Source of the DNA: a virus
Lineage: Duplodnaviria; Heunggongvirae; Uroviricota; Caudoviricetes
Reading direction: 5' to 3' (one strand)
Length of the DNA: 39,229 nt
Virus record (IMG/VR): IMGVR_UViG_2537561824_000013
Part shown: one piece after another, positions 2,609-39,229 of the stretch
Position numbering within the stretch: the first letter of the stretch is position 1
Layout of the letters: every line of letters begins with the position of its first letter
The notes under the pieces: model-generated
Told to the model about the DNA's origin: nothing
The model's input: the letters and a program-made list of their open reading frames with translations, nothing else
The model's database searches: none
Made by a program: the position numbers and the translations under genes

Positions 2609-2686
2609 TGATGCGCCGCGCGATAAATGCACTCTATCTTGTGCGATAAATGGCATCCACGCGGCGTTTCATTATTTGAAAAAGAA
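2609..2686. mobile_element. Prophage terminal region (attR-like end) with candidate transposase-binding repeats
   Basis: Sequence starts TGATGCGCCGCGCGATAAATG at 2609; GCGATAAATG occurs directly repeated at 2620-2629 and 2643-2652; 78 bp separate the end from the invertase stop codon. Confidence 0.5.
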
Positions 2687-3259
2687 TTACATTTCAGGTT
2701 GCGTTATGACAGTCCCAACAGGGTGATAGCGGTAGATCGTTGACAGTCCAATATCATAGATAATTGCCAGCCGCTTTCTGTCATACCCTTTCTGGAGCAA
2801 TCTTGCGATCTGCTCATGCTGCTCCTTCGTCAGTTTCGGGCGACGTCCTCCAACTCTTCCTTGTGCTCGCGCAGCAGCCAGTCCAGCCAGCGTGCGCTCA
2901 ACTATCAGTTCACGCTCCATTTCTGCCAGTGCACCCATCATATGAAAAAAGAACCTTCCCATCGGAGTGCTGGTATCGATTGAATCCGTCAGACTGCGAA
3001 AATTGACACCTTTTGCGCGTAGCTCTTCTGTGAGAGCAATGAGGTGTTTCATTCTTCTACCCAACCGATCCAGCTTCCAGACCACCAATGTATCCCCTCT
3101 TTTAAGGCACTTTAAAGCGCGTTTCAGGCCTGGTCGTTCCGACTTGGTTCCGCTCATTTTGTCCTCAAAAATCTGTTCACATCCTGCGCACATTAATGCA
3201 TTGCGTTGCAAATCTGTGTTTTGGTCATTTGTTGACACACGTATGTAGCCAATCAGCAT
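2687..3259 (-). CDS. gin: Site-specific DNA invertase, Gin/Hin/Pin/Cin family serine recombinase
   Basis: ATG at complement of 3257-3259 preceded by AAGGGAG; product starts MLIGYIRVSTNDQNTDLQRNAL with the catalytic Ser context and ends in an HTH (GLSTIYRY); the 233-aa track ORF starting at GTG 3388 is an over-extension. Confidence 0.9.
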   Translation of the reverse strand: MLIGYIRVSTNDQNTDLQRNALMCAGCEQIFEDKMSGTKSERPGLKRALKCLKRGDTLVVWKLDRLGRRMKHLIALTEELRAKGVNFRSLTDSIDTSTPMGRFFFHMMGALAEMERELIVERTLAGLAAARAQGRVGGRRPKLTKEQHEQIARLLQKGYDRKRLAIIYDIGLSTIYRYHPVGTVITQPEM

Positions 3260-3325
3260 TAAAAATACTCCCTTTTGAGTGGTTAAAGTACTGAGATAAT
3301 GTGGGGAGGATTTGAGAGATAAACG

Positions 3326-3545
3326 TTGGTTTGGGGGAAGGCTCGGCGCTGCCCGTTGGTGTACCTGTTCCGTGGCCCACTGCCACACCGCCAGCAGGCT
3401 GGTTAAAGTGCGACGGGCGCGCCTTTACAAAAGAACAATATCCTGTTCTGGCCAGAGTCTACCCGACCCTCCGTCTTCCCGATTTGCGCGGTGAGTTTAT
3501 CCGTGGATGGGACGACGGGCGAAAAGTGGATACAGGGCGCGATCT
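3326..3545. repeat. Recombination repeat A at the 5' border of fiber cassette 1; inverted relative to repeat C
   Basis: About 220 bp nearly identical to 3765-3985 and, as reverse complement, to about 5150-5370; homology starts at TTGGTTTGGGGGAAGG, which resembles a gix/hix half-site (GGTTT...GGAA). Confidence 0.6.
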
Positions 3546-3759
3546 GCTTTCACGGCAGGATGGTACAAGTTTTTCTCATTACGCAGGTAATTTTGACATT
3601 GGGTCTGGTCATTCAATCAATAACTATGACCAAATCCTTGACAACCAACCTGGATTCTCCCGTTTTTCATTTGCAGGTCCTTCGCGAGGCGATGGGGTTA
3701 ATTATGTGACCATTCGTCCCCGTAACATTGCGTTTAATTACATCGTAAGGGCGGCATAG
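3331..3759 (+). CDS. Alternative tail-fiber C-terminal cassette 1 (promoterless and start-less exon, currently unexpressed orientation)
   Basis: Frame opens at TTG with no ATG or RBS; the first ~70 aa (GEGSALPVGVPVPWPTATPPAGWLKCDGRAF...GWDDGRKVDTGR) are identical to the matching segment of the expressed fiber, then diverge; ends in the conserved ...RPRNIAFNYIVRAA. Confidence 0.6.
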   Translation: MGEGSALPVGVPVPWPTATPPAGWLKCDGRAFTKEQYPVLARVYPTLRLPDLRGEFIRGWDDGRKVDTGRDLLSRQDGTSFSHYAGNFDIGSGHSINNYDQILDNQPGFSRFSFAGPSRGDGVNYVTIRPRNIAFNYIVRAA

Positions 3760-3764
3760 AAACG

Positions 3765-3985
3765 TTGGTTTGGGGGAAGGCTCTGCATTGCCTGTTGGTG
3801 TACCGGTTCCATGGCCCACCGCCACACCGCCAGCAGGCTGGTTACAGTGCAACGGAGCTACGTTCACCAAAGAACAATATCCTGTTCTGGCCAGAGTCTA
3901 CCCGACCCTCCGTCTTCCCGATTTGCGCGGTGAGTTTATCCGTGGATGGGACGGTGGTCGCAAGGTTGATACCGGGCGTGCGCTA
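3765..3985. repeat. Recombination repeat B at the 5' border of fiber cassette 2; direct with A, inverted relative to C
   Basis: Same shared sequence as repeat A, starting AACGTTGGTTTGGGGGAAGG. Confidence 0.6.
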
Positions 3986-4231
3986 CTTTCATTTCAGGAA
4001 GGGACTATCGTATCCGGTTTTGATGATAATGATACCGGAGATATCAGTTCGCTCGGCTCTACACAATACGGATTTGGTGACGCTTTAACCTCTAATCAAC
4101 TGGGGGTCTTAAATGGCAAAAAGTGGATATTTGATGCATCCTCTAAAGGTGCACAAAGATATGACTGGTGGGCTTATGTATCAGCTCGCCCCCGCAATAT
4201 CGCATTTAACTATATCGTGAGGGCGGCGTGA
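3770..4231 (+). CDS. Alternative tail-fiber C-terminal cassette 2 (promoterless and start-less exon)
   Basis: Frame opens at TTG; shares the N-terminal ~70 aa with cassette 1 and the fiber, then has a unique distal domain; same C-terminal NYIVRAA. Confidence 0.6.
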   Translation: MGEGSALPVGVPVPWPTATPPAGWLQCNGATFTKEQYPVLARVYPTLRLPDLRGEFIRGWDGGRKVDTGRALLSFQEGTIVSGFDDNDTGDISSLGSTQYGFGDALTSNQLGVLNGKKWIFDASSKGAQRYDWWAYVSARPRNIAFNYIVRAA

Positions 4232-4237
4232 TACCGT

Positions 4238-4852
4238 TCAGCCGGCAAGCGCCAGTGGCGCTTCCGGCCAGCTGATTTCAGGTGCCTTGCTGATATCCAG
4301 TGCGTTCAGCTCGTCGATATAATCCAGCACGGCGTTCAGTTTTGCCGTTTCTTCTGGTTTCAGACTGCGACCAGCACGCAGTTTGAGGTTGATAAGATCG
4401 ACGGACGCCATCGCCTGTTTCACCCGTTGCTGGCGTTGCTGTCTGGCAACCTCCAGTTCTGCGGCTCGCTGCCGTTCAGTATCGGTTACCCACGCCTCAC
4501 CGTTCCAGGTATCCCATGGCGTGGCTGGCTGTTTTGTGGTGGTGTCCGCCGGGTAATCACCCGGTTGGGTAATCAGAACGGGGTTACCGTTCTCCGTGCT
4601 GTATACCGTCTCGCCGCGGTGATCAGGCACATGCTCCCACCCGTTCAGCGTGGCAGTCCGGCAAACCACGTAACCCGAAATTGCTTCCGGCGGTGCATCG
4701 GCGCACGAATGTGCCGGAGTACCCACCCCAAGGGCGAGATACTCCACAGAGGATGAGGTGTATTCCCGGGTTTCCTCGTCATAGTGATATACAGTGATAT
4801 CGCCCGCTACAGTGGCGATACCGTTTTCATCCAGAACTGCAGTGTTACTCAT
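4238..4852 (-). CDS. Tail fiber assembly protein (Mu U / P2 G / Tfa-like chaperone)
   Basis: 204-aa ORF whose ATG overlaps the fiber stop codon; product has the N-terminal conserved region typical of Tfa proteins; its position right after the fiber gene matches Mu S-U. Confidence 0.75.
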   Translation of the reverse strand: MSNTAVLDENGIATVAGDITVYHYDEETREYTSSSVEYLALGVGTPAHSCADAPPEAISGYVVCRTATLNGWEHVPDHRGETVYSTENGNPVLITQPGDYPADTTTKQPATPWDTWNGEAWVTDTERQRAAELEVARQQRQQRVKQAMASVDLINLKLRAGRSLKPEETAKLNAVLDYIDELNALDISKAPEISWPEAPLALAG

Positions 4853-5149
4853 TAAACTGCCCTCACAATGTAATTAAGTGCAATGCTACGGGGTCTGACA
4901 GTGATACCCTTCGCATACCCGCTTCTGATAGAGGTCAGAATAGTAGCCTGCATACCATTGTCTGACATTGCCACGACAGGATCGCTGAATGTTGTCCCGT
5001 CCGGCATTTTAAAGCTGCCCTCACGAAGGTCTGTAATGGAATCTTCATTGTTGAATCCCATGCCGACTATCCCCGAGGTTCCCGTAGTGTCCTGGTTATA
5101 ATAATCCAGCATTGCTGTTCTTAACAGCGTTGCCCCTTGTGCGGACAGC

Positions 5150-5370
5150 AACTTACGTCCTGTATCAACTTTGCGCCCGTCGTCCCATCCACGGATAAAC
5201 TCACCGCGTAAATCGGGAAGACGGAGGGTCGGGTAGACTCTGGCCAGAACAGGATATTGTTCTTTTGTAAAGGCGCGCCCGTCGCACTTTAACCAGCCTG
5301 CTGGCGGTGTGGCGGTGGGCCACGGAACAGGCACACCAACGGGTAGCGCCGAGCCTTCTCCTAAACCAAG
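5150..5370. repeat. Recombination repeat C inside the expressed fiber gene; inverted relative to A and B
   Basis: Reverse complement reads CTTGGTTTAGGAGAAGGCTCGGCGCT... and is nearly identical to repeats A and B over about 220 bp. Confidence 0.6.
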
Positions 5371-5499
5371 GTAATTGAGGACATCTTTTATACTGCCCTT
5401 AGCGATAATAGCGCGACCAATAGCTGTAAGGGTTGCCAGCTCTGCGCGGTCTGCTCCGGTAAAATAAGGCAACCGATCTGCTGCAGTGGCAAGTCCTGC

Positions 5500-6000
5500 C
5501 AGAGCAGTGAGCGTGGCATCTGCCGGTTGTTTTCCGTTTGCCAGATCGTATGCAGCCTTGACCGCTTTCGGTGTGGCGGCCAGTATTTCAGACGTGCTGT
5601 TGATGGCACTGCTCAATTGTACGGTGCCTTTTGCCGTCAGCGAGGCAGCAGGCACTCCCGTTATCTGACTCCACGGGTGAGTGTGGCTGACGGGCGCCTT
5701 GCCGGCTGCAAGGTCGTATGCAGCCTTGACCGCCTTCGGCGTGGCAGCCTCAGTTTCTGATTGACTGTCCGTGGCGCTGCTCAGTTGTACGGTGCCTTTT
5801 GCCGTCAGCGAGGCAGCAGGCACTCCCGTTATCTGACTCCACGGGTGAGTTGGCTGACGGGGGCCTTGCCGGCAGCCAGGTCATATGCAGCCTTGACGGC
5901 CTTTGGTGTGGCGGCCAGCGTTTCAGAGGTGCTGTTGGTGGCACTGCTCAGTTGGGTGAACCCCTTAGCTGTCAGTGTCGCGTCCGGGTGGTTACGGGAA
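5500..6000. repeat. 168-bp tandem coding repeats (about three copies) in the tail fiber gene
   Basis: Each copy encodes ...SLTAKGTVQLSSATDSxSEtxAATPKAVKAAYDLAAGKAPVSHTHPWSQITGVPA...; the nucleotide copies are nearly identical. Confidence 0.8.
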
Positions 6001-6184
6001 CGTACGTGTTCAGCCAGTGACTGTGCGGCTTCCTCCGTTTTTTTCTTCAGCCATTTCGTCCTGTTTGCCAGTTGCCGGGGGGCTCGATTTGATATCCCGT
6101 CTGCACCACCCAGAACCGGATCTGATGTCTCCAGTTGATAGATATTTTCTTCCCACTTTTCTGTTTCATTCAGGTTTCCCATAA

Positions 6185-6763
6185 TCAACTGCTCCCGTGG
6201 TTATAACTGCCATCATGGATGGCGGTATTGTTATAGCGAATGGCCACAGACTGATACTCCAGGCTGGCCAGATGGCAGCGGGCCGGTGCAAATGCAGCGA
6301 GCGTCTGACGCAGCATCGCGGCCTGATCGTTAGTAATGGGCTGTTTCAGAATAACGCGATAAACTGCCCAGGCGGCTGCATCTCCATGAACAAACAGTCC
6401 GTTATAGCTGCGATTGCCGTCGTAACTGAGACGACCTGTGCCTTCAATCAGATCCACTTCACCAAAGCCAAAACGGCGGATAACTTCCCGGATTGACCAC
6501 GGCGTCCCTTTATACCGGTGCAGTTCGATGGCTGCTTTTATAAGCATGCGGCGAACATCGTCCGATTCCGCCAGCTCCCAGCCATCGCCAGACAGTGAGA
6601 ACTGCTCGCCCAGCCATGGCAGCGCGGAACTGTCGACGATATCGACGAGAAAGACCATCAGTACGCTCAGGTCGATGTTATCCAGCCGTCCTGCCAGTCT
6701 TCCCAGCGTCCTGAGACTGATATCACCCTCAAGCGGTGGCGGGAGTTGTAATGGCTCAGTCAT
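6185..6763 (-). CDS. Baseplate/tail protein (P2 gpI-like, Mu gp48-like)
   Basis: 192-aa ORF, ATG at 6763 overlapping the upstream stop; sits between the baseplate J-like gene and the fiber as in P2 and Mu. Confidence 0.65.
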   Translation of the reverse strand: MTEPLQLPPPLEGDISLRTLGRLAGRLDNIDLSVLMVFLVDIVDSSALPWLGEQFSLSGDGWELAESDDVRRMLIKAAIELHRYKGTPWSIREVIRRFGFGEVDLIEGTGRLSYDGNRSYNGLFVHGDAAAWAVYRVILKQPITNDQAAMLRQTLAAFAPARCHLASLEYQSVAIRYNNTAIHDGSYNHGSS

Positions 6764-7859
6764 CAGACACTCCAGTCATGTTAAGAGTGATTGCCGTACA
6801 GTTTGCCCATTCGTTTTCTGCCACCACCCGCAGTGCCGGTGTCACCAGTTCAACCTGGTACACCCCGGAAACGGACAATGCACTGATAATCTGGCTGGGG
6901 ACAATATCGCGCCCCAGCGTGGCGGCACGTGATGCCACCCAGTTCTGTATGGCGCTGTTAGCGGCATCTTTTACAGACCTGGCATCCTGATCACGATAGA
7001 TCGTAATCTTGGCTTCAATGGTGTAATCCACCTTCACTGGTGTTTTAGCCCGCACTGTATCAGTGAGTGGCCTGACTTTCTCATCAGAGCAGAAACTCTC
7101 TACCAGCGTGAGAACACCGCCGTCCGGCAGACCGGTACTGAGCAGCGGATACAGATCTACGGTCCCGGGAACCGGGGAAAGCACAGCAACATCGACAATG
7201 TTGGGATGGGCCTGCATGGCATGAAAGCGGTATGCGCCACGGCTTCCGGCATTGGTGAATGACTCCGGGGCCAGCCTGATACGCTCCCGGAGCCTGTCAT
7301 CGTCTTCCTGTTCTGAACCGCCGGAACTGGCCGTCAGATTGCTCACCAGCAGGTCGACGTTATCAATCTCATCGAGTAACTGACTGACCTGCGCAGGTTG
7401 CCAGCCGTTACCAGCGGTACCGGGTTCGGTACAGGTGGACGTGACATTGACCAGCAGCAATCCGGCCTTCAGTACCACATCTGTATCGGTGGCAAAAATA
7501 ACGCTGTCGGAAGCGCTGACGCGGGTGCCTGCCGGGATCAGCACATCAATGGCCAGTGCCTCATCTACGGAGAACTGGAGCGTGGTAGTGGCAGGCTGCG
7601 CGGCAAGACGGTATACACCGACCAGTTCACCGAGGTAATCAATCATCGGCTCACGGGCAAAGGCGACCAGATTCTGCTTTGCTGCCTCCTGTACCGCAAC
7701 CCTGACCAGCATTTCGCGATAGGCCCACAGATCAATCAGCAGACGTTCTGCCTGTGCCGGGTACAGCGTTTTGCCGGTATCCGCTTCATACTTCGCAATC
7801 ATTTCTGCCGTGATTTTGTCGGCATCGCGTTCAATAAAATCGGGTTCTGTCAGCGCCAT
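6756..7859 (-). CDS. Baseplate J-like protein (P2 gpJ / Mu gp47 family)
   Basis: 367-aa ORF in conserved synteny; size and position typical. Confidence 0.75.
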   Translation of the reverse strand: MALTEPDFIERDADKITAEMIAKYEADTGKTLYPAQAERLLIDLWAYREMLVRVAVQEAAKQNLVAFAREPMIDYLGELVGVYRLAAQPATTTLQFSVDEALAIDVLIPAGTRVSASDSVIFATDTDVVLKAGLLLVNVTSTCTEPGTAGNGWQPAQVSQLLDEIDNVDLLVSNLTASSGGSEQEDDDRLRERIRLAPESFTNAGSRGAYRFHAMQAHPNIVDVAVLSPVPGTVDLYPLLSTGLPDGGVLTLVESFCSDEKVRPLTDTVRAKTPVKVDYTIEAKITIYRDQDARSVKDAANSAIQNWVASRAATLGRDIVPSQIISALSVSGVYQVELVTPALRVVAENEWANCTAITLNMTGVSDD

Positions 7860-8197
7860 AGCAGCTCCTGAGTCCGGGTCTGTCCGTCTGAGCCTTTCCA
7901 GCTCACCCGGAGCGTAAGATGTTCGCCGTCGACGGCGGGTTTAACTGACATAAGCTGGCAGCGGGGCTCCCAGCGCCGGATGGCATCGACGGATTCGCGC
8001 ACCACATGCGGAATGGCCCGGTCTACAGGCCAGTCGATATAAAGATGCAGATTGCTGCCGAACTCCGGGCGATGCGGGTCGCTGCCGCGGGGAGTCCGCA
8101 GGATAATTTGAATCGCCTGCCGGATATCATCCAGCCCCCGGACAATTTCGCCGGGAGCCTGCAGGGTCGGTTGCCAGAATACTGAGGTTGTTTTCAT
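7850..8197 (-). CDS. Baseplate wedge protein, GPW/gp25 family (Mu gp46-like)
   Basis: 115-aa ORF with ATG at 8197; size and synteny between spike and J-like genes. Confidence 0.7.
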   Translation of the reverse strand: MKTTSVFWQPTLQAPGEIVRGLDDIRQAIQIILRTPRGSDPHRPEFGSNLHLYIDWPVDRAIPHVVRESVDAIRRWEPRCQLMSVKPAVDGEHLTLRVSWKGSDGQTRTQELLWR

Positions 8198-8251
8198 GGG
8201 GGCAGTATTGCCCCCGTGCGGGAACGCTGATATTAAAGGCGTTTAAAAAGC

Positions 8252-8848
8252 TCAGTGGGAGTGGTGGCTGGAGTTTTCGCCATCAGACAACATACTGCCC
8301 GTGGCATGGGCATTCCCTTTAATCTCGATATTGCCATGGATGGTCGCGGTAACACCTTCACCACCAGAACCCGCCATGCCTCCTTCGTAAATCAGCTTAC
8401 CCCTGACACGCAGATCTCCGGTAAGTTCGGTTTCCGGTGCGTCAATCGTGGCTTTCTGTGTTTTCAATACCACATCAGCACCACACTCAATGACAATATG
8501 CTCAATGCCGCCCCGGATGGTCAGAGTGTGCGTCTTCCGGTTGTAGCTGTACTCTGCACCATCAGCAAACCGGGTTCCCCGGATATTTTTGTCACTGAAC
8601 GGTGGTTTATCGACGTCTGAATACACCGCGCCCAGAATAACACCATCCTCGCCGTTGGCATCGAGCAGCACCTCAACCTGCTCCCCCACGTCAGGGAGCC
8701 AGTAATCTTTGTTATCCTGGGTATTGCGCTGCAGCACGTTAAGCCAGTTTGTGCGCAGGTTATCGCATTCAGGCAGACGAACGCGGGCCTGAACCCTGTC
8801 GGCATCAACGGCACTGACCGTACCGACCTGACGAGTGACACCAGTCAT
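8252..8848 (-). CDS. Baseplate spike / assembly protein V (Mu gp45-like)
   Basis: 198-aa ORF with ATG at 8848 overlapping the upstream stop; conserved position; His-rich C-terminal tip (SSHHSH). Confidence 0.75.
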   Translation of the reverse strand: MTGVTRQVGTVSAVDADRVQARVRLPECDNLRTNWLNVLQRNTQDNKDYWLPDVGEQVEVLLDANGEDGVILGAVYSDVDKPPFSDKNIRGTRFADGAEYSYNRKTHTLTIRGGIEHIVIECGADVVLKTQKATIDAPETELTGDLRVRGKLIYEGGMAGSGGEGVTATIHGNIEIKGNAHATGSMLSDGENSSHHSH

Positions 8849-9999
8849 TTTTTCTTCTCCTTAATCACCGTCGATGTACTGCCATCCGGGTGATAAACCG
8901 TGAGTTTCTGAGTTTTTTGTTTTTTCCCTCTTGTGACTGGCCCCCGTGCCACTTCCAGCTCTGTGGTGTAGCCGCTGTTACGGTCAAACGCATGGCGGGC
9001 AGTGGTTATGAGCCATGGCCCGGATAACTGCCCAAAACCCACCAGTTCAATTTTGTTGCCTGCTGTCAGTTGAGGTGTTCCCGTCAGCGTCAGGGAGCCG
9101 TTCTGCTGGTATTCGTTATGTCTGGCCAGTGCTGAATCCGCTTTAATCCGGGCACTGTCCGGGTCGCTGACGCGGCTGTTAACTTTAAGTGAGTCAGCGC
9201 TGGTAACCTTACCACCTTTGAGCTTTTTGTCGCTTTCACGGGTACCACCATCAGCTTCGTAGACGATCAGTTTTTTACTGCTGCTTTTCTGGTGTTTTAC
9301 CTTTGCAGATTTATAGACCCGGTTGATGGTGTCACGCAGGGAAAAGCGGGCCACATCCTGCGGTTTTAACTGCCTGACCGGCTCCTGACTGCGCAGTGTG
9401 GCCAGATGAGAAAAAATCAGCTGGTCACTGACCACTTTCACTGCATAACCATACTCGCTGGCCAGCCGGCGCAGAAAACCCACGTCGGTTTCAGCATACT
9501 GGGTCACCCGGTCGATTCTGATGGACTCAATGCTGCCCACCAGTTTCAGTCGGTGCTTTCTGGCAATCCGCCCCGCAACAGCTGCCAGCGTGGTGTTCTC
9601 AAAACCACGACTGGTTTTAGTCCGCAGGGCACTGTTAACCGAGGTGGCCACCCCACGGATAGAAACAACGGAAGCGGGCGAACTCACTTCGATCTCGTCT
9701 ATAGAGAACGTACCGCAGGACAGCAGCTTCTCGCCCTGATAGCCCATTTTCAGCGTCAGCGTGTCACCCTTGCCCGGATACCATTTATCCAGCCAGCGGC
9801 CATCGGTGTCGTCCAGCTCCACCTCAATGGTATCGGACTCATTTTTGATGTTATCGCTCCAGGTCACACGGGTGACATAAGGCGCGATATCAGAGGTGAT
9901 GTTTTTCTGCAGATACCACAAAGTGAACACCGGTGTCAGCACATCGCTGACGCCGGTTAACGCTGATGTGACTTGCGCAGTGCTGTTTATCTCAGCCAT
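8845..9999 (-). CDS. Tail/baseplate hub protein (P2 gpD 'late control D' / Mu P-like)
   Basis: 384-aa ORF with ATG at 9999; size matches Mu P (about 379 aa) and it follows gpU-like and gpX-like genes. Confidence 0.7.
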   Translation of the reverse strand: MAEINSTAQVTSALTGVSDVLTPVFTLWYLQKNITSDIAPYVTRVTWSDNIKNESDTIEVELDDTDGRWLDKWYPGKGDTLTLKMGYQGEKLLSCGTFSIDEIEVSSPASVVSIRGVATSVNSALRTKTSRGFENTTLAAVAGRIARKHRLKLVGSIESIRIDRVTQYAETDVGFLRRLASEYGYAVKVVSDQLIFSHLATLRSQEPVRQLKPQDVARFSLRDTINRVYKSAKVKHQKSSSKKLIVYEADGGTRESDKKLKGGKVTSADSLKVNSRVSDPDSARIKADSALARHNEYQQNGSLTLTGTPQLTAGNKIELVGFGQLSGPWLITTARHAFDRNSGYTTELEVARGPVTRGKKQKTQKLTVYHPDGSTSTVIKEKKK

Positions 10000-10199
10000 G
10001 GGGCAATATCCTCTTCTGTACGGGCTTCTTCAGCCTCAATCACCGGGATCAGTAACAACAGCCCGGAGGGCAGCACCGGCGTGATGGCCACGTGCGGATT
10101 GGCGGCAATAATCCGGGGATAGCCCAGCGGGTCACCGTAGTACTGCCATGCCAGCGAATCCCAGCGCTCTCCGTCACGGGTAACATGTTCAAGAAACAT
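9987..10199 (-). CDS. Small tail protein, P2 gpX-like
   Basis: True ATG at complement of 10197-10199 forming an ATGA overlap with the upstream stop; 70-aa product with a W..LA..YYGD motif as in gpX. Confidence 0.5.
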   Translation of the reverse strand: MFLEHVTRDGERWDSLAWQYYGDPLGYPRIIAANPHVAITPVLPSGLLLLIPVIEAEEARTEEDIAPWLR

Positions 10200-27300: not shown

Positions 27301-27302
27301 GA

Positions 27303-30061: not shown

Positions 30062-30068
30062 AACAAAA

Positions 30069-30534: not shown

Positions 30535-30575
30535 AAAAGTGAATCTCTATCTTGATATGCTCATAATTATGAGCA
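30528..30575. promoter_or_regulatory. Candidate operator/divergent promoter region between the repressor and the early operon
   Basis: Perfect 18-bp palindrome TGCTCATAATTATGAGCA at 30558-30575 plus an extra half-site TGCTCATAA at 30528-30536 overlapping the repressor ATG. Confidence 0.55.
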
Positions 30576-30627
30576 ATAATCTAACACATATAAGGCAAAC
30601 ATCATTGCATCAACAAAGGAGACAACG

Positions 30628-30816: not shown

Positions 30817-30862
30817 ATATTTTGAGTCTTTGTAAAAGGTTATCACATATCGCAAAAGAGGT

Positions 30863-31177: not shown

Positions 31178-31187
31178 GGAGTAATCA

Positions 31188-32108: not shown

Positions 32109-32425
32109 TGAATACGAATAACACACAAAATACCCTGATGGACAGCCCGGAGGCACTGGGGCACGCACTGTGTAATCTGCTGCCGGAGATGGTGCAGGGT
32201 TTCCGCGTGGTGACCCCTTCCGGTGAAATCTGCGTACCCGCACAGGAGACGCACCCGTTTGTACTGACGATGGAGGTGATGCTGATGCAGCAGATAAGAC
32301 GTCTGCAGAATCAGTCAGCATTACGCCCGGTAGTTGCACCGCAACCGGTAAATACCGTGGTGAAAACCTGCGATGGCGAAACACTGTGCGACCTCGCCAG
32401 AAAAATTGCCGCCAGAATCGGATAA
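32108..32425 (+). CDS. Hypothetical early protein (105 aa)
   Basis: ATG at 32108 in a TAATG overlap with the preceding stop. Confidence 0.45.
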   Translation: MNTNNTQNTLMDSPEALGHALCNLLPEMVQGFRVVTPSGEICVPAQETHPFVLTMEVMLMQQIRRLQNQSALRPVVAPQPVNTVVKTCDGETLCDLARKIAARIG

Positions 32426-32440
32426 CAGGGAAGACAAGCT

Positions 32441-34210
32441 ATGACCCCGGCACTGACTGAAAAACTGGTTGAAACAGCCCGCGCGGCACGTGACGCGGGG
32501 CATGGTAAACGCGGTGCAATATACGACGCTGCCTGTGCTGAACTTGGCATGTCCCGCGCCACTCTGCTGCGCAGGCTGAAGGAGGTATCTGTGACTGATA
32601 AACGCAAAAAACGCGCCGATGCCGGGCGCAGCGCCCTGACCCGCGACGAAGCCGCGCTGATATCTGCCACACTGCGTGAGGCCACCCGCAAGAACGGTAA
32701 GCGTCTCTATTCCATCGCAGATGCAGTGGAAACCCTGCGGGCTAACGGCTTTATCACCGCAGGCAGAACAGATGAAACCACCAGTGAGTTTTTCCCGTTG
32801 TCTGAAGATGCCATCAGCCGTGCTCTGCGTAACTATGGCCTGCACCCGGAACAACTGGATGCCCCTGCACCACATACCGAAGTGGCCAGTCTGCATCCCA
32901 ATCATGTCTGGCAGATTGACGCCTCACTCTGCACGCTTTACTACCTGAGCAATGGACATAAAGGGCTGCAGGTGATGGACAGCGCGAAGTTCTACAAGAA
33001 CAAGCCCGCTAACCTTGCCCGTATCGCCAGTGACCGCGTGTGGAGTTACGAGATTACCGACCATGCCAGCGGCTGGATTTACGTTGAGTATGTGACGGGC
33101 GCGGAATCAGGTGAGAACCTGTGTTCTGTGCTTATCAACGCCATGCAGGAGCGTGGCGGCGCAGACGTGCTGCACGGCGTGCCGAAAATACTCTATCTCG
33201 ACCCCGGCTCGGCAAACACCGCGGGTATGACGAAAAACATGTGCCGCTCACTGGGCATCGACCTGATAGCGCACAAGCCGCATAACGCCCGCGCCACCGG
33301 ACAGGTGGAAAAGGCGCGTGACATTATCGAACGCAAGCTGGAGCCGGGTCTGAAGTTCCGGCCGGTTCACAGTCTGGAAGAACTCAACGCGCTGGCCGCG
33401 AAATGGCGCAGCCACTTTAACGCCACGGCTGTTCACAGCCGCCACGGTAAAACCCGCACGGATATCTGGCTGAAGATTACTGCTGAGCAGCTGAAAAAAG
33501 CGCCTTCCGTTGAGGTATGTCGTGAACTGGCTGTGGCGGCACCAGAACTCCGCAAAGTCACGCCAAAACTTCGTGTCTCGTTCCGGGGCACTGAATTTGA
33601 CGTATCAACGGTACCGGGCGTACTGGTTGGTGAAAAACTGATGATTACCCGTAACCCATGGCGCAGCGATGTGGCACAGGTGGTTCTGACCGGTGAGGAC
33701 GGCCACGAGACGTTCTTCCTGGTCGAAGAGGTCAGAAAGAACGAGTTTGGCTTTGCTGAAGGCGCGGCGGTATTTGGCGAAAGTTACAAAGCCCTGCCGG
33801 AAACCCCGGCACAGATGGCGGCAAAAGAAACCGAAGCGCTGGTTACCGGTACAGACAACGCCGCAGATGCAGCCGCCGCACGCAAGGCGAAGGCGCTGCC
33901 GTTCGGCGGGCGGCTTGACCCGTATAAACATATCGACGACACCACACTTCCGGCCTATATGCCGAAGCGTGGTCAGGCCTCTGACGTACGCGGGCCGCGC
34001 ACTGAACAACGTCCCATGACTCATGTGGAGGCCGCGAAAGCCCTGCGCGATAAGTTCAGCGCCGACGGCCTTACCTGGACGCCGGAACATTACCGCCAGT
34101 TAACGGCACAGTACCCGGACGGCGTACCGGAAGCCGCACTGGATGAAGTCATGGCCACGCTGACCACACCGGCCCGCAGCAGTGTTATCAGCATTGTTAA
34201 CGGCAACTGA
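32441..34210 (+). CDS. DDE transposase (integrase-core/rve-type; functional equivalent of MuA)
   Basis: 589-aa ORF with ATG at 32441; N-terminal HTH, then candidate catalytic triad in ...VWQIDAS..., ...LYLDPGSAN... and ...TGQVEKA... with about 35 aa between the second D and the E; followed by the B-like ATPase. Confidence 0.85.
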   Translation: MTPALTEKLVETARAARDAGHGKRGAIYDAACAELGMSRATLLRRLKEVSVTDKRKKRADAGRSALTRDEAALISATLREATRKNGKRLYSIADAVETLRANGFITAGRTDETTSEFFPLSEDAISRALRNYGLHPEQLDAPAPHTEVASLHPNHVWQIDASLCTLYYLSNGHKGLQVMDSAKFYKNKPANLARIASDRVWSYEITDHASGWIYVEYVTGAESGENLCSVLINAMQERGGADVLHGVPKILYLDPGSANTAGMTKNMCRSLGIDLIAHKPHNARATGQVEKARDIIERKLEPGLKFRPVHSLEELNALAAKWRSHFNATAVHSRHGKTRTDIWLKITAEQLKKAPSVEVCRELAVAAPELRKVTPKLRVSFRGTEFDVSTVPGVLVGEKLMITRNPWRSDVAQVVLTGEDGHETFFLVEEVRKNEFGFAEGAAVFGESYKALPETPAQMAAKETEALVTGTDNAADAAAARKAKALPFGGRLDPYKHIDDTTLPAYMPKRGQASDVRGPRTEQRPMTHVEAAKALRDKFSADGLTWTPEHYRQLTAQYPDGVPEAALDEVMATLTTPARSSVISIVNGN

Positions 34211-34220
34211 GGAGGGAAAC

Positions 34221-35387
34221 ATGCTGGTACTGAAGCAGCAACTGAAAGAGGCCCGTATTCCACAGGCGGTGGTGGCGAGAGCTGTCGATGTTTCTGAGGC
34301 CACGCTGGCCCAGATTGTGAATCATAACGCGTGGCCCCGCACCAGCCCCGGAGAAGTGCGCCGGCGTCTTGCGTCCTGGCTGGAAAGTCAGGGGATTGAT
34401 ACAACGAAGAGTTTTGATGCTGTACAGGGCGCGGCCACGCCCCGTACAGCGGGTACCACAGATAAAACGAGCCTCAGTGAGGAAGAGAATATGTTACTCA
34501 AAAAACAGGTGTTATTTCCAGCAACCAAAAAAGCGTTTGGTCTTTTCCGTGACCCGTTCGCCGACGAAGCCATGCAGGGTTCTGATGATGTGTTCACCAC
34601 CCCGGATATTCGCTACGTGCGTGAGGCGTTGTACCAGACAGCCCGTCATGGTGGGTTTATGGCCGTCATCGGTGAGTCCGGTGCGGGTAAATCCACGCTG
34701 CGCCGCGACCTGACTGAACGTATCAACCGCGAGAATGCGCCGGTAATTGTTATCGAGCCATACATCATCGCTATGGAAGACAACGATGTGAAAGGGAAAA
34801 CCCTGAAGGCAGCAGCGATTGCCGAAGCCATTATCAGTACCATCGCACCACTGGAAAGCATCAGACGCAGTCAGGACGCCCGCTTTCGCCAGTTGCATCG
34901 CGTCCTGAAAGACAGCAGCCAGGCGGGGTTCAGCCACGTTCTGGTGATTGAGGAGGCCCACAGTCTGCCCATTCCGACACTGAAACACCTCAAACGCTTT
35001 TTTGAGCTGGAGTCCGGTTTCAAAAAACTGCTGTCCATCGTGCTGATTGGCCAGCCGGAACTGGCGACAAAACTGTCTGAACGCAATATGGAAGTCCGTG
35101 AAGTCGTTCAGCGCTGTGAGGTGGTCGAACTTCTGCCTCTGGACAATAACCTTGAAGAGTTTCTGACGTTCAAACTGCAACGGGCCGGTAAACAACTGAC
35201 GGACATTATGGACGCCAGCGCAGTGGATGCCATACGTGCCCGCCTGAGCAATCCGGGAAGTCATCGTAAAAATATGGTCAGCCTGCTGTATCCGCTGGCC
35301 GTCAGTAACCTGGTAATAGCCGCCATGAATCTGGCCGCTGAAATCGGGGTTCCACAGGTCAACGCTGACGTTGTCAAAGGGGTTTAA
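34221..35387 (+). CDS. Transposition helper ATPase (AAA+; MuB/TniB-like)
   Basis: ATG at 34221 with GAGGAGGGAAAC upstream; Walker A GESGAGKST and Walker B-like VLVIEEAH; immediately downstream of the transposase. Confidence 0.8.
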   Translation: MLVLKQQLKEARIPQAVVARAVDVSEATLAQIVNHNAWPRTSPGEVRRRLASWLESQGIDTTKSFDAVQGAATPRTAGTTDKTSLSEEENMLLKKQVLFPATKKAFGLFRDPFADEAMQGSDDVFTTPDIRYVREALYQTARHGGFMAVIGESGAGKSTLRRDLTERINRENAPVIVIEPYIIAMEDNDVKGKTLKAAAIAEAIISTIAPLESIRRSQDARFRQLHRVLKDSSQAGFSHVLVIEEAHSLPIPTLKHLKRFFELESGFKKLLSIVLIGQPELATKLSERNMEVREVVQRCEVVELLPLDNNLEEFLTFKLQRAGKQLTDIMDASAVDAIRARLSNPGSHRKNMVSLLYPLAVSNLVIAAMNLAAEIGVPQVNADVVKGV

Positions 35388-35389
35388 TA

Positions 35390-35659
35390 ATGAAATCCAC
35401 CACAGGTATCAACCAGCAAATCAGCAAAGTGCAGTCAGCCATTATGGCGCTTAAGGCGACGAACACGGATGTACAAAGCATCACCATCAGGGGTAACAAA
35501 CCTGTCATCCGCGTTTCCCGGAGTGCGCATTGCATGCGCATGCTTGAGCAGGGAAAGGCCTGTTATCTGTATACCGGTCATGACCACAGGGGACATTTCC
35601 GTCAGGGCGTTTTCGAACTGCACGGCTGTCGCGTCGTGTGGCCGGAATCTTTGTGGTAA
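35390..35659 (+). CDS. Hypothetical early protein (89 aa)
   Basis: ATG at 35390 in a TAATAATG arrangement with the B stop. Confidence 0.45.
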   Translation: MKSTTGINQQISKVQSAIMALKATNTDVQSITIRGNKPVIRVSRSAHCMRMLEQGKACYLYTGHDHRGHFRQGVFELHGCRVVWPESLW

Positions 35660-35686
35660 TCAGCACAACAGGAGGAGTCATAAAAT

Positions 35687-36217
35687 ATGGCAAAAAGTAC
35701 AAAAGGGGCAAAACGTATCAAAGCCGCAGCAGCACTCTGGGTGCCGGGGACACGCGAAGAGGTCATTGAGGGAATCAGACTGCTTGGTGACGCGCAACGT
35801 GAACTGGTCAGGGCTGAAACAGAAATGAATGACACCATTGGCGACATCACTGCACGTTATGCCCCGCTCACCGAGAGCCTGAAAAAACGCATGGCCGAAC
35901 TGCAGTCCGGTATCCAGACATGGTGTGAGGCGCACCGTGATGAACTGACCGGCAACGGGAAGGTGAAGTTCGCTAACCTCACCACCGGCGAGGTGCAGTG
36001 GCGAAACCGTCCGCCGTCAGTCAGCATTCGCGGGGCGGATAATGTCATTGAACTGCTGAGACGTCTGGGGCTTGAGCGCTTTATTCGTGTAAAAGAGGAA
36101 ATAAATAAAGACGCTATCCTGAATGAAAAAGAGGCCGTGAAAAATATTCCCGGTATTTCCATTAAAAGCGACATTGAGGATTTTTCAATAATTCCTTTTG
36201 AGCAGGATGTGCAGTAA
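35687..36217 (+). CDS. gam: Gam-like host-nuclease inhibitor (DNA end-binding protein)
   Basis: 176-aa product closely matches phage Mu Gam as I remember it (e.g. ...WCEAHRDELTGNGKVKFANLTTGEVQWRNRPPSVSIRG... and C-terminal ...DFSIIPFEQ...). Confidence 0.8.
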   Translation: MAKSTKGAKRIKAAAALWVPGTREEVIEGIRLLGDAQRELVRAETEMNDTIGDITARYAPLTESLKKRMAELQSGIQTWCEAHRDELTGNGKVKFANLTTGEVQWRNRPPSVSIRGADNVIELLRRLGLERFIRVKEEINKDAILNEKEAVKNIPGISIKSDIEDFSIIPFEQDVQ

Positions 36218-36314
36218 ACACACCACGTTAATTATTTAATAAAAACATTTTCTTTTTTATTCCGACGTCAGCGCCGCGGGCTTCTGCACGCCGGAAACAG
36301 AGGAGAATTAAATC

Positions 36315-36509
36315 ATGATATTTAAATGTATTCAGTGCGAGAGGGATATAACAGCCCTGCGTTTTCACAGCGCCATCGCCGTGATGTCCGGTAAATACCA
36401 CATCCCTGCGGTACGCGTCACCCTGGTCTGCCCGTACTGCAGCCAGCATTTTTCGGCAGACGTGCCCGTCATGGAATTCTCCCGCCCTGACAGGGAGGAC
36501 TCGCAATGA
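36315..36509 (+). CDS. Small zinc-ribbon protein (CxxC...CxxC)
   Basis: 64-aa ORF with Cys pairs CIQC and CPYC; stop overlaps the next gene's start. Confidence 0.45.
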   Translation: MIFKCIQCERDITALRFHSAIAVMSGKYHIPAVRVTLVCPYCSQHFSADVPVMEFSRPDREDSQ

Positions 36510-36778
36510 TTACCCCACAGGAAGCACGACAGCGCACCCGAACCCTTGTTGAACACTATGTCAACGAGTGTGAATGCCGCGACCTCACCGATGTGAAGCA
36601 CGTCCTGACGGCGCTAATCAGCATGACCGCTCAAGCCATTGTGGCGACCAACGGAAAGGCGGCTGCCCTGCAGGTACTGGTGAACACACTAACCCACACG
36701 GCAGCGCATGAGGTGCCGTACCGGATGGAAACCACTGCAGAAGGCGGCCTGCACATCACCGTCAGCCGGAAGCACTGA
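36506..36778 (+). CDS. Hypothetical early protein (90 aa)
   Basis: Translationally coupled ORF; no motif recognised. Confidence 0.4.
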   Translation: MITPQEARQRTRTLVEHYVNECECRDLTDVKHVLTALISMTAQAIVATNGKAAALQVLVNTLTHTAAHEVPYRMETTAEGGLHITVSRKH

Positions 36779-36787
36779 GGGCGCGGC

Positions 36788-37084
36788 ATGACACGGAACA
36801 CCATACTCACCCGCACCGCCCTCTACCGTCTGGCCCTGCAGCGTTTCGGGCCGGACGCACAGGCCCTGAAACTGACAGAAGAGGCCGCTGAACTGGCGGC
36901 CAGTGCTGCCCGCAATCTGAACGGACAGGGCAGCGAAAGCGACCTCGCGGCAGAGCTGGCAGACGTGGAAATCATGACAGAGCAATTGCGCCTTCAGGGG
37001 ATGGACCGGCTGATTGACTTCCACAAACAGAAAAAACTGGAACGTCTGGCTGCACGACTGGGCGTGATTTACACGAACGAGTAA
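36788..37084 (+). CDS. Possible MazG-like nucleotide pyrophosphohydrolase-domain protein
   Basis: 98-aa product with paired acidic-helix motifs (LTEEAAELAASA ... LAAELADVEIMTEQL) like small phage MazG proteins; assignment is weak. Confidence 0.4.
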   Translation: MTRNTILTRTALYRLALQRFGPDAQALKLTEEAAELAASAARNLNGQGSESDLAAELADVEIMTEQLRLQGMDRLIDFHKQKKLERLAARLGVIYTNE

Positions 37085-37098
37085 CCGGGAGGCATTCA

Positions 37099-37314
37099 AT
37101 GGCTGACATACTCAGGGAAATCACCGCATGGATACTGATTCTTACTGGCCTGGCGACATGCCTCAGTGCGGGGGCAGCCCTGGCTGCCCTGCTGATGCAC
37201 ATAACAACACAGTGGTTATGGGAAAAGCTTAAAGCAGCATACAGCCTGAAAGAGCTGTCCGACGCTGTCCGGGCATGGAAACGGCAGAAAAATACCGGAG
37301 ATACAGAACAATGA
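37099..37314 (+). CDS. Small membrane protein (71 aa)
   Basis: One clear hydrophobic helix (ITAWILILTGLATCLSAGAALAALLM). Confidence 0.35.
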   Translation: MADILREITAWILILTGLATCLSAGAALAALLMHITTQWLWEKLKAAYSLKELSDAVRAWKRQKNTGDTEQ

Positions 37315-37994
37315 CAGACCAGAATAAACACATTGAGAAACTGAAAAAGTTGCTGGCGCTGGCCGCATCCGGCAACCCGCACGAGGCCGCTCTGGCACTG
37401 TGCCGAGCCCGTAAACTGATGGATGTTCACGGCATCACACATTCCGACATTGCTATGAGTGATATTGATGAAACCATCAGTCACTACTGGCCGACAGGCA
37501 GTCTCCGTCCACCGCGCTACATGCTGGGCCTGATGAACATCATCCGCGAGGTATTTGGTGTTAACTCCATCATTCACCCCGGCACGCATCCGTCTGTGGG
37601 GTTCTACGGCAACCGGGAACGTGCGGCACTGGCTGCATACACCTGGGAAGTGCTGGCCCGTCAGCTGAAAAAGGCGCGTCAGCAGTATATCAGTGCACAG
37701 AACAAAAGAATAAAAACCGCCACCCGCACCAGCCGTGGAGACCAGTTTGCCGAAGGCTGGGTGCTGGCCGTTATCAGTGAAATACAGTCCTTTGCCCTGA
37801 CCGATGATGAGCGTGAACTGATGCAGCAGTGGCTGGAACATAAATACCCGCAGACGCAAACCACCAGGGCGCGTAAACCGGGAAGAAGCCGCAATGGCGA
37901 CGCCTCGCGCTATGCGGGGTTTCGTGAAGGGCAGAACGTCAGACTGCACCGCCCGGTCAGTGGGCAGGAACAACAGAAACTGGAGGCCAGATGA
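37311..37994 (+). CDS. Hypothetical early protein (about 227 aa)
   Basis: ATG at 37311 (product starts MTDQNKHIEKLKKLLALAASGNPHEAA); the track start at 37275 overlaps the preceding ORF. Confidence 0.5.
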   Translation: MTDQNKHIEKLKKLLALAASGNPHEAALALCRARKLMDVHGITHSDIAMSDIDETISHYWPTGSLRPPRYMLGLMNIIREVFGVNSIIHPGTHPSVGFYGNRERAALAAYTWEVLARQLKKARQQYISAQNKRIKTATRTSRGDQFAEGWVLAVISEIQSFALTDDERELMQQWLEHKYPQTQTTRARKPGRSRNGDASRYAGFREGQNVRLHRPVSGQEQQKLEAR

Positions 37995-38221
37995 TTACGC
38001 TATCAGGTAAAAGCCGGAAATTAAAAGCCTGCCGAATATCTGCCAGATACCTTTTTGCCCGCGCCTTTTTTAAGAACGTCAGGCCGGGGATCACAATTGG
38101 TGTTATTGCCGGACGCGAACAGGTTGAAAAATACATGTCAGGTGCATGGTGGAATAACGACCCTGTCATTGCTGCCCGTAATATTCATATCGAATGGGGA
38201 GGTATTCAGAATGACTACTGA
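37991..38221 (+). CDS. Hypothetical early protein (76 aa)
   Basis: ORF with an ATGA-type overlap to the preceding gene. Confidence 0.35.
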   Translation: MITLSGKSRKLKACRISARYLFARAFFKNVRPGITIGVIAGREQVEKYMSGAWWNNDPVIAARNIHIEWGGIQNDY

Positions 38222-38417
38222 AACCATTGTCTGTTTTCTTTTCTGGTATATGTACGCAGGATCATGCAGCGCAAGACTTCATCGTTCCCTGGGCTATGGC
38301 AGGCACTACGACACCGCGCATTACATCCTGTACATGACCGCCGTCATGTTGTTCTGGCCAGTCACCCTGCCAGCTGCAACCGACATTGTTGCCGACAGAC
38401 TGAAAAAAAGGAGATGA
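38211..38417 (+). CDS. Small membrane protein (68 aa)
   Basis: ATG at 38211 with GGGGAGG upstream; two hydrophobic segments. Confidence 0.4.
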   Translation: MTTETIVCFLFWYMYAGSCSARLHRSLGYGRHYDTAHYILYMTAVMLFWPVTLPAATDIVADRLKKRR

Positions 38418-38418
38418 T

Positions 38419-38868
38419 ATGCAGAAAAAACGCCTGATACAGCTTATCCATATTGCCCGTAATGAACTGGGTATGGATGAAGACACCTACCGCCAGATGT
38501 TACAGGGGCTGACCGGTAAAGCCTCAACCAAAGGAATGGATACCACACAACTAAACTGCGTGCTGGAATCCATGAAAAAGAAAGGCTTTCGCGTTAAACC
38601 AGCCAGAAAAGCCAGCTCCGGTTTACCGCTGGATAACCATCCGCAGTCCAGGAAAATTCGTGCGCTATGGCTTGAAATGGCTGCTGCCGGCATTGTTCGT
38701 GACCGTTCAGAAAATGCATTAGCGAGGTGGATCAAGCGGGAAACGGGCATCAGCGCCCTGCGCTGGCTCAGTACTGAACAGGCAAGCAGTGTTATTGAGA
38801 AACTGAAGAAGTGGCAGCGCAGAGCTGCGGGAGTCAAACATGAGCGACCTGAATCAGTTTCGAAGTAA
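38419..38868 (+). CDS. gemA: GemA-like early regulatory protein (Mu gp16 family)
   Basis: 149-aa product starting MQKKRLIQLIHIARNELGMDEDTYRQ, resembling Mu GemA; lies immediately upstream of mor as in Mu. Confidence 0.7.
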   Translation: MQKKRLIQLIHIARNELGMDEDTYRQMLQGLTGKASTKGMDTTQLNCVLESMKKKGFRVKPARKASSGLPLDNHPQSRKIRALWLEMAAAGIVRDRSENALARWIKRETGISALRWLSTEQASSVIEKLKKWQRRAAGVKHERPESVSK

Positions 38869-39229
38869 GGGGCCGGAACTCCTGGTGGAACTGGCACAGC
38901 ATCCCTCTGAGACCGTTCGCGAGATTATTGATATTGAGCCCGAAGTTGCCGACCAGATTGGTCAGGCCGTCGCGAACCGAATGATGCAGGTCTGGGGCGG
39001 GCAAAACGTTTATTTCCCGATGGGCATGGTATGGAAGGTCAGTCAGCGCGACCGGGAAATCTTCAGGGAGTTTAACGGACGCAACCACCACGAACTGGCC
39101 CGCAAATTTGGTGTTTCGCTTCAGTGGGTCTACAGCGTGGTTAAGCGGGTAAGAAAAGAAGAACTGGATCGGATGCAGGGCAAGCTATTTGCTGATGAAC
39201 CCGATGCAGATACGGAGAAAAAAGAGTAA
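38840..39229 (+). CDS. mor: Mor-like middle transcription activator
   Basis: 129-aa product, the same length as Mu Mor, with a C-terminal HTH (HHELARKFGVSLQWVYSVVKRVR); the stop codon is the last three bases of the window. Confidence 0.8.
   Translation: MSDLNQFRSKGPELLVELAQHPSETVREIIDIEPEVADQIGQAVANRMMQVWGGQNVYFPMGMVWKVSQRDREIFREFNGRNHHELARKFGVSLQWVYSVVKRVRKEELDRMQGKLFADEPDADTEKKE

Follow-up and report, generated by a model that had tools for sequence, protein, structure and literature searches.

The viral DNA stretch IMGVR_UViG_2537561824_000013 (39,229 nucleotides, hereafter the window) carries, from position 2609 to its end, Mu-like phage genes in two arms that diverge from a central region. 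The late genes run leftward (minus strand), beginning at the holin start (27653) and extending to the tail fibre and invertase genes; the early genes, rightward on the plus strand, begin at 30628 and end with the stop codon of Mor at 39229. The question raised by this locus is whether the two arms form one transposable prophage and, if so, to which group of phages it belongs. An earlier note on this DNA had described both arms as they are, had taken their divergence for the mark of a special mosaic, and had suggested a resemblance to the BcepMu/SalMu group. The present analysis led us to conclude with high confidence that we are dealing with a single prophage from the BcepMu-like transposable myoviruses, about 36.8 kb in length, essentially the same phage as PhiKM and inserted in yafV. 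The suggested resemblance was borne out by the gene order, the terminal repeats and the published description of BcepMu, and the divergent arms proved to be the family norm.

A BcepMu-like prophage and its copies

The 57 gene calls of the prophage were translated and compared with BcepMu (NC_005882), Mu (NC_000929) and P2 (NC_001895) by tblastn, and with the Pfam, PHROGs and NCBIfam families. The gene-by-gene comparison showed that about 37 genes are colinear with BcepMu at 31–76% amino acid identity. BcepMu has been described as consisting of two opposed gene clusters with a lysogeny control region at their interface; its lysis cassette is followed by Mu-like head genes and then by a tail cassette related to that of P2 in sequence and order, its Tn552-IS1604-type transposase bears no relation to MuA, its ends carry terminal CA repeats, its virion DNA has variable host DNA at both ends, and it has no tail-fibre inversion system (PMC2771037, Lavigne et al. 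2009). An rve domain and 5'-TG...CA-3' termini have been reported for the BcepMu group (PMC2628397), and 23-bp imperfect terminal repeats for phiE255 and BcepMu (PMC2920897). In the window, we likewise found opposed clusters with the control region at the interface and GemA and Mor at one terminus, an rve (Tn552/IS1604-type) transposase rather than MuA, an ExeA/Eha-like ATPase, the order of holin/SLT/Rz cassette, Mu-like head and P2-like tail, and 5'-TG...CA-3' termini with imperfect repeats of about 23 bp. Copies of the element occupy many insertion sites with a short target duplication, the right flank of the window's own copy lying outside the stretch. The divergent layout is therefore, from the published descriptions of the BcepMu group, the defining layout of a known family.

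The family and its layout have been in the literature since 2004–2009. The BcepMu relatives SalMu (Salmonella Typhi), PhotoMu (Photorhabdus) and ChromoMu (Chromobacterium) are named in PMC3417384, a BcepMu-like supercluster has been reported in Haemophilus and Aggregatibacter, and Bcepmuvirus-assigned prophages have been reported in E. coli ST131 and among induced Pseudomonadota gut phages. We surveyed the family across species by an alignment search with the transposase, using one genome per species; 246 relatives were found, and 80 loci from Enterobacterales, Pseudomonadales, Burkholderiales, Neisseriales and others were kept. TerL could be detected within 10 kb at 63 other-species loci, and at 60 of these it is encoded upstream of the transposase, on the other strand; an AAA+ gene adjoins the transposase in 76 of the 80 relatives. 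Loci from Photorhabdus, Xenorhabdus and other enterobacteria display the same synteny as the window prophage. In the three remaining loci (L040, L046 and L075), the late genes (lysis, terminase) share the strand of the early arm and lie downstream of it, beyond Mor wherever this gene was detected; these loci thus combine a Mu-like colinear order with a BcepMu-type transposase and BcepMu-type proteins. The orientation of the early arm has therefore been flipped within the BcepMu-like family.

Within the phage collection, the top megablast match was PhiKM (PQ738613.1), from uropathogenic E. coli, with 99.6% identity over 27000–39229 and 99.0–99.3% over 5237–25294. PhiKM has the same genes in the same order and covers 94% of the prophage at 99.0–99.6% nucleotide identity; it differs in that its record is partial and permuted, a sequencing gap falls in the tape-measure gene, and the invertase and fibre-cassette end of the window prophage is lacking. 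We found no paper on E. coli phage PhiKM in the literature. The next matches were the Klebsiella "KP12" contig and "Phi06_2974 B", at about 85–88%, and no Burkholderia phage was matched in this search. The product of identity and aligned fraction (blastn) was 93% for PhiKM, 64% for KP12, about 20% for BcepMu, 2% for Mu and 1% for P2. The strict ICTV genus criterion is about 70% or more nucleotide identity over the genome. Since its similarity to BcepMu is about 20%, the window prophage falls short of this value for the genus Bcepmuvirus; "BcepMu-like" is accordingly a family-level and not a genus-level statement, and the Bcepmuvirus label that GenBank taxonomy gives to PhiKM is looser than the 70% criterion. 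Of 5,426 complete E. coli genomes, 640 (about 12%) contain the right arm of the prophage (36000–39229), in as many as three places each and with widely scattered coordinates. With a near-identical phage record, hundreds of RefSeq copies and a published family layout, the element is already known. The discovery value of the locus is thus small, and its use lies in annotation, in the exact boundaries and in the correction of the tail to the P2 type. The presence of this prophage type at many sites in about 12% of the complete E. coli genomes implies recurrent gene disruption, here of yafV.

Several points weigh against our conclusion. The nucleotide similarity to BcepMu just given is low; the right terminus lies outside the window, as does the other copy of the target duplication; the repressor, operator and late promoter described below are assigned by position and motif only; and induction, transposition and virion production by this copy are predictions from the sequence. 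In addition, the tail fibre gene (4852–6182, minus strand; Phage_fiber_2 and Collar domains), which has a P2 gpH-like N-terminus followed by 168-bp tandem repeats, is frameshifted, the break falling at about 5826–5831. Compared to the copy in the closed genome of MLI121, it shows a gap of 337 nt (two 168-bp units plus 1 nt) that leads to the frameshift and to an in-frame stop at 5829–5831, whereas the PhiKM version, with a clean deletion of 336 nt at the same repeat, stays in frame. This copy may hence be unable to form infectious particles, provided that the frameshift does not stem from faulty assembly of the tandem repeat. That it is a defective (cryptic) prophage with a broken fibre gene is a possibility that we take seriously while doubting it: a single-base error in a collapsed tandem repeat is a common short-read artefact, all other called prophage genes are intact, and the rest of the sequence is 99.9% identical to the copies in closed genomes. 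A cryptic state would also be compatible with a BcepMu-like prophage as far as identity is concerned, differing only on the viability of this copy.

Ends, insertion sites and unity of the two arms

The base composition and open reading frame (ORF) map divide the window into host DNA of lower G+C content (1–2608) and a block of 50–60% G+C from 2609 on. The host flank contains, in order, the 3' end of yncH, an ISEc1/ydcC-type insertion sequence (IS) copy (951–2087) and a truncated yafV; positions 1–2095 match yncH and the IS copy. The 3' part of yafV (2-oxoglutaramate amidase; 2096–2608, minus strand), which is severed by the insertion and lies outside the phage, was identified by Pfam CN_hydrolase, by NCBIfam NF007757 (349.9 bits) and by a 100% match to an annotated yafV ending at 2608. 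The match to intact yafV in other strains breaks off at 2608. The junction between yafV and the prophage was not found among the top-ranked complete genomes, all of which match yafV only up to 2608. From 2609 rightward, the window has matches in other E. coli genomes, where they are flanked by different genes, and position 2609 is therefore the boundary of a mobile element. The start at 2609 in the earlier note is thus the exact left end of the prophage.

The tail-side terminus (2609–2654, plus strand) begins with 5'-TGATGCGCCGCGCGATAAATGCAC... and contains two repeats of about 23 bp, with GCGATAAATG at 2622 and 2645. Copies at other loci start exactly at the position corresponding to 2609, and the terminus can be aligned with its tail-side counterpart in BcepMu. 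For the right terminus, the sequence comes from the copies in EcPF7 and MLI121, in which the neighbouring right arm shows 99.99% identity to that of the window. In these closed genomes, the element ends with ...TCAAGTCTAATCA, 162 bp past the Mor stop codon that closes the window. Only this non-coding right terminus of 162 bp is missing from the window and no gene is lost, so that the "missing left part" suspected in the earlier note comes down to this terminus. The element is 37,120 bp long in MLI121, and 36,783 bp is the expected length of the window version. Each terminus starts with 5'-TGA, followed by two copies of the motif G(C/A)GATA(A/T)(A/T)T 23 bp apart; we presume that the paired repeats of about 23 bp are the binding sites of the transposase. 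In the best alignments of the termini, the tail side pairs with the tail side of BcepMu and the Mor side with its Mor side.

The copy in MLI121 splits cbtA, with GTGAAC preceding 5'-TGATGCG... and following ...CTAATCA-3'. In EcPF7, the copy occupies the interval from otsB to araH and is flanked by a duplicated CCATTT. A 6-bp target duplication thus encloses both arms in both of the closed genomes examined, compared to the 5-bp duplication of Mu. For the insertion in yafV in the window, GCCCGG is the predicted duplication. At least five insertion sites were recorded: cbtA, otsB/araH, a position beside aroA, yafV, and one at which fdrA or ddpB lies under the match. Searches of the window for tRNAs and Rfam families found none.

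Because one 6-bp duplication encloses both arms, they are parts of one element. We give practically no credence to the strand change being an assembly artefact, or to the two arms being two neighbouring elements, the outcomes that the earlier note itself had named as fatal to its account: the window does end at the Mor stop codon, with its own right junction outside, and no positive support for either was found, while the arrangement is unbroken in closed genomes, the single duplication there splitting one host gene or intergenic site, the central junction (27300–30900) is covered to at least 80% in 476 complete genomes, the sequenced virion DNA of BcepMu has the identical layout, and so do the 60 of 63 other-species relatives described above.

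Early, control and late genes

The transposase gene (32441–34210, plus strand) encodes a DDE transposase of the rve (Tn552/IS1604-like) type, which matched rve as its only Pfam family and PHROG 310 (transposase) and is 68% identical to BcepMu gp09. The D, D, 35-residue, E pattern proposed in the earlier note was recovered as D160, D254 and E290, with 35 residues between the last two. These residues align with the catalytic D and E residues of retroviral integrases, and an alignment with BcepMu and KP12 showed them to be invariant in BcepMu gp09. PDB sequence searches with the transposase and its partner ATPase gave marginal matches only, to retroviral integrases and generic P-loop ATPases, and these were used for the placement of the DDE residues, not for family assignment. 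The transposase had no match to MuA in the tblastn search against Mu. The adjacent gene (34221–35387, plus strand) encodes an ExeA-like AAA+ transposition ATPase (Pfam AAA_22; PHROG 296, "DNA transposition protein") that is 59% identical to BcepMu gp08 and is, by analogy, probably the functional counterpart of MuB.

The early operon starts (30628–32425, plus strand) with a helix-turn-helix (HTH) protein of the BcepMu gp16 family (NCBIfam TIGR04111) at the position of Mu Ner, followed by an IclR-type HTH protein (Pfam HTH_IclR), a DUF3102 protein and a 105-residue protein; the proteins of this region show 33–46% identity to BcepMu gp16, gp12 and gp10. Downstream of the ATPase gene lies a semi-essential early region (35390–38417, plus strand) with Gam (Pfam Phage_Mu_Gam), a DUF2786/DUF7168 protein (37311–37994) and eight small ORFs. 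Gam (35687–36217) is of the Mu type, with 61% identity to Mu Gam and no match in BcepMu. Since its distribution is patchy (12 of the 80 relatives), Gam is an exchangeable accessory of the BcepMu-type family. The arm ends (38419–39229, plus strand) with GemA (38419–38868) and a late activator of the Mor family (38840–39229), both identified by Pfam; they are 44% and 54% identical to BcepMu gp02 and gp01, and 36% and 30% identical to Mu gp16 and Mor, respectively. Gam, GemA and Mor are thus present as the earlier note had reported.

The presumed immunity repressor is encoded divergently from the early operon (30178–30534, minus strand), at the position of BcepMu gp17. It is a small XRE/cI-type HTH protein of 118 residues, in line with the earlier reading, and matched Pfam HTH_3, HTH_19 and Phage_CI_repr as well as transcriptional repressor families of PHROGs. 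No sequence match to BcepMu gp17 or Mu c was found by tblastn, and a homologue was detected in only 15 of the 80 relatives, indicating that immunity is variable. A promoter scan placed the presumed early promoter Pe (TTGATA-17-AATAAT, 10 of 12 matches) at 30552–30580 on the plus strand. A perfect 18-bp palindrome, TGCTCATAATTATGAGCA (30558–30575), fills the spacer of Pe; it occurs once in the window, with zero occurrences expected by chance. Promoter and palindrome lie in the interval from the repressor start (30534) to the first early gene (30628), and Pe is the best sigma-70 match. The position and symmetry of the palindrome suggest that it is likely to be the operator. On the other side of the repressor gene, a consensus scan detected a terminator-like hairpin (30068–30092) with an 11-pair stem, a following T run and flanking A/T runs, between the Dam and repressor genes. 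The 130-bp intergenic region upstream of the holin gene (27654–27783) is presumed, from its position and by analogy to the roles of Mor and C in Mu, to contain a Mor-dependent late promoter; no sigma-70 consensus was found there in the promoter scan, which would fit such a promoter.

The late arm opens with the lysis cassette and two small conserved genes (25292–27653, minus strand), which encode a holin (27303–27653; Pfam Holin_2-3), an SLT transglycosylase endolysin (26560–27300; Pfam SLT), an Rz-like protein (25926–26576) and gp25- and gp26-like proteins, with 32–61% identity to BcepMu gp21–26. The head and packaging genes (16587–25292, minus strand) follow the Mu gene order and encode gp38-like, Gp37, Gp36, cement, major capsid, protease/scaffold, G, F, portal, TerL and TerS proteins; the Pfam matches were Gp37, Phage_Mu_Gp36, Phage_cement_2, Phage_tail_S, Phage_Mu_F, Portal_Mu and Phage_Mu_Gp27. 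The module is 44–67% identical to BcepMu gp27–38, and TerL, F, portal and G are 49%, 47%, 27% and 29% identical to their Mu counterparts. The "Mu-type head" of the earlier note therefore stood for TerS, TerL, portal, F, G, gp36 and gp37, but not for the major capsid and protease/scaffold proteins, which had no match in Mu and matched BcepMu only.

Its "Mu-type tail" had to be replaced by a P2-type one. The tail and baseplate genes (6185–16597, minus strand) encode I, J, W, V, D, X and U proteins, a tape-measure protein, an E/E' chaperone, FII tube and FI sheath proteins, with Pfam matches to Tail_P2_I, Baseplate_J, GPW_gp25, Phage_base_V, Phage_GPD, Phage_tail_X, Phage_P2_GpU, PhageMin_Tail, Phage_TAC_7, Phage_tube and Phage_sheath_1. 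By tblastn, they match BcepMu gp39–51 at 31–76% identity and P2 more weakly; against Mu, only one weak match to baseplate J (gp47, 27%, E about 1e-4) and short matches in tail-fibre repeats were obtained.

These results also bear on the idea that the prophage is a true relative of Mu (Muvirus) that has undergone inversion and partial replacement of its early region, a recent mosaic derived from Mu. In its favour, Gam (61%) and the invertase described below (76%) match the Mu proteins, and TerL, F, GemA and Mor also match Mu at 49%, 47%, 36% and 30%. The tblastn search, however, found no match in the prophage for MuA, MuB, c or Ner, and the tail matches were weak or short. In the whole-prophage comparison with Mu and BcepMu, which the earlier note had suggested as a check, no more than 3% of the prophage could be aligned with the DNA of Mu, and it is BcepMu that is matched by 37 genes, by the two termini and by the order of the genes; Gam itself is patchy among the BcepMu-type relatives. 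We therefore see hardly any chance that the prophage is a Muvirus, and retain its assignment to the BcepMu-like group.

Fibre switch, accessory slot and comparison with known phages

A Gin-like serine DNA invertase (2687–3259, minus strand; Pfam Resolvase and HTH_7) is encoded next to the tail-side end. It is 76% identical to Mu Gin over 181 residues and has no match in BcepMu. The gene lies 78 bp from the prophage end, which leaves no room for a mom gene, so that the Mu-style invertase and fibre switch of the earlier note were found at the end with nothing mom-like beyond them. The invertible tail-fibre segment (3316–5381) was recognised by its inverted repeats and contains Collar and Caudo_TAP domains. 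It has crossover sites at 3316–3341 and 3755–3780 and, in the inverted orientation, at 5356–5381; the last lies inside the expressed fibre gene, and the other two are in the opposite orientation. All three share the core ..TTGGTTT(A/G)GG(A/G)GAAGGCTC, and inverted repeats of 229 nt in the segment are 93% and 86% complementary. The sites bound the current fibre tip, the tail fibre assembly gene (4238–4852, minus strand) and two promoterless alternative C-terminal cassettes with Collar domains (3331–3759 and 3770–4231, plus strand). There are thus three crossover sites and not two, and the cassettes have no tail fibre assembly gene of their own. A serine invertase beside inverted sites in a fibre gene is the arrangement of the Gin/Hin/Cin/Pin invertase switches, a family to which the system in the window belongs. 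In EcPF7, an outer inversion has fused the first cassette to the constant part of the fibre; because this copy carries the segment in the other orientation, the switch operates in nature.

A match of the invertase and fibre module to a P2-like "Entero_P88" phage was also considered, and was rejected as a common possession since the GenBank record is a mis-delimited prophage call. In PV468777.1 (Entero_P88_NC_026014(23)), positions 29593–40277 contain the host genes pflB, focA, ycaO, serC and aroA and then the left end of a prophage, this end being the invertase and fibre cassettes of another copy of the BcepMu-like prophage in the window.

The central cargo slot named in the earlier note corresponds to a variable accessory slot between the late promoter and the repressor gene (27784–30061), whose content differs among the E. 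coli copies. In the window, it contains a 242-residue P-loop protein (27784–28512, plus strand), a 134-residue ORF (28488–28892, minus strand), a 71-residue ORF (28891–29106, plus strand) and a D12-class Dam methylase (29207/29297–30061, plus strand; Pfam MethyltransfD12). The P-loop protein gave a weak P-loop match and carries the Walker A motif GPVGSGKS. Its homologue search returned 19 clusters, and every source name given was E. coli. The mean predicted local distance difference test (pLDDT) score of its AlphaFold model was 45, too poor for use. The three slot proteins other than Dam fall into PHROGs 3787, 2266 and 4490, all without an assigned function; no Pfam family and no annotated PHROG was found for them, and the PADLOC matches were to methyltransferase models only.

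Of the complete E. coli genomes, 635 match 27300–30900, including the 476 that cover at least 80% of it. In TUM1586, the slot holds a shortened form of the P-loop gene, a longer HTH protein and further ORFs, that of strain 8178 has a DUF2441 gene, and in FAM21845 Dam is followed by a gene for a nucleoid-associated protein. The differing content was noted at 27784–29106 in the window, 985–3157 in locus L010, 1204–3807 in L011 and 3862–6077 in L012. A truncated allele of the 242-residue protein, with 158 residues, is annotated as "ABC transporter ATPase". At the 80 other-species loci, Dam was present in the central slot in 26 cases and the 242-residue P-loop gene in one. It seems to us quite unlikely that the slot is a dedicated accessory or defence hotspot of enterobacterial BcepMu-like prophages in which the P-loop protein and the two small ORFs act as a superinfection-exclusion or anti-phage module. 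The variable slot with its genes of unknown function, the three-site fibre switch and the rare colinear relatives are the points that merit follow-up.

Homology and gene anatomy together suggest a possible course of events in this prophage. In the lysogen, the leftward XRE/cI-type repressor would bind the 18-bp palindrome in the promoter spacer and shut the early promoter. Induction would then allow expression of the rightward early operon, with the gp16/Ner-like regulator, the rve DDE transposase, its ExeA-like AAA+ partner, Gam, GemA and, last, Mor. The transposase would bind the paired 23-bp repeats at the TG...CA termini and drive replicative transposition into near-random targets with 6-bp duplications. 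Mor would activate a single long leftward late operon for lysis, Mu-type headful packaging and head formation, and the P2-type contractile tail. The Gin-like invertase would flip the three-site segment and swap the C-terminal tip of the fibre, presumably changing the host range, and the slot between the late promoter and the repressor would carry accessory genes, namely the Dam methylase and three proteins of unknown function.

Compared to known phages, the window prophage resembles P2 in its tail only. The families V, W, J, I and H, and FI, FII, E/E', T, U, X and D are common to both; identity is 25–39% for the proteins V, W, J, I, FI, FII, U and D, and the N-terminal part of the fibre reaches about 60%, whereas the order of the two tail sub-clusters is different, and the tyrosine integrase, cos ends, own capsid and terminase genes and Ogr control of P2 are absent from the window prophage. 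Mu shares with it the TG...CA ends, Gam, GemA, Mor, the homologues of TerS, TerL, portal, F and G, a Gin-type invertase with a switchable fibre tip and, presumably, replicative transposition. In contrast to the window prophage, Mu is colinear on one strand and has MuA, MuB, the c repressor, Ner, its own tail and com/mom; its G segment is a symmetrical S/U-S'/U' one, while the window switch has three sites and cassettes without an assembly gene of their own, and the window prophage copies show a 6-bp duplication.

The closer relatives are of the BcepMu type. KP12 (OM835952.1) has the same gene order, at about 84% identity over 75% of the prophage, and also possesses a tail-end invertase and a Dam gene in the central slot; its central slot, repressor and small early genes are different, and its annotation lists no Gam. 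The record, entitled "Klebsiella phage KP12 clone KP12_2", is filed under Vequintavirinae, yet the sequence is that of a prophage contig of the BcepMu-like type. Gam, Dam and an invertase or fibre inversion system are all missing from BcepMu, which carries an acyltransferase at the tail end instead; the enterobacterial lineage of the window prophage adds the Mu-like Gam, the Gin-like invertase with its three-site switch, Dam and the variable slot, and the two repressors are unrelated in sequence. BcepMu and phiE255, the type members of the BcepMu-like viruses, have the following traits in common with the window prophage: the clusters are opposed with the control region at the interface, the rve transposase is accompanied by an ExeA-like ATPase, GemA and Mor stand at the outer early end, a holin/SLT/Rz cassette is combined with a Mu-type head and a P2-type tail, and the TG...CA termini carry paired 23-bp repeats.

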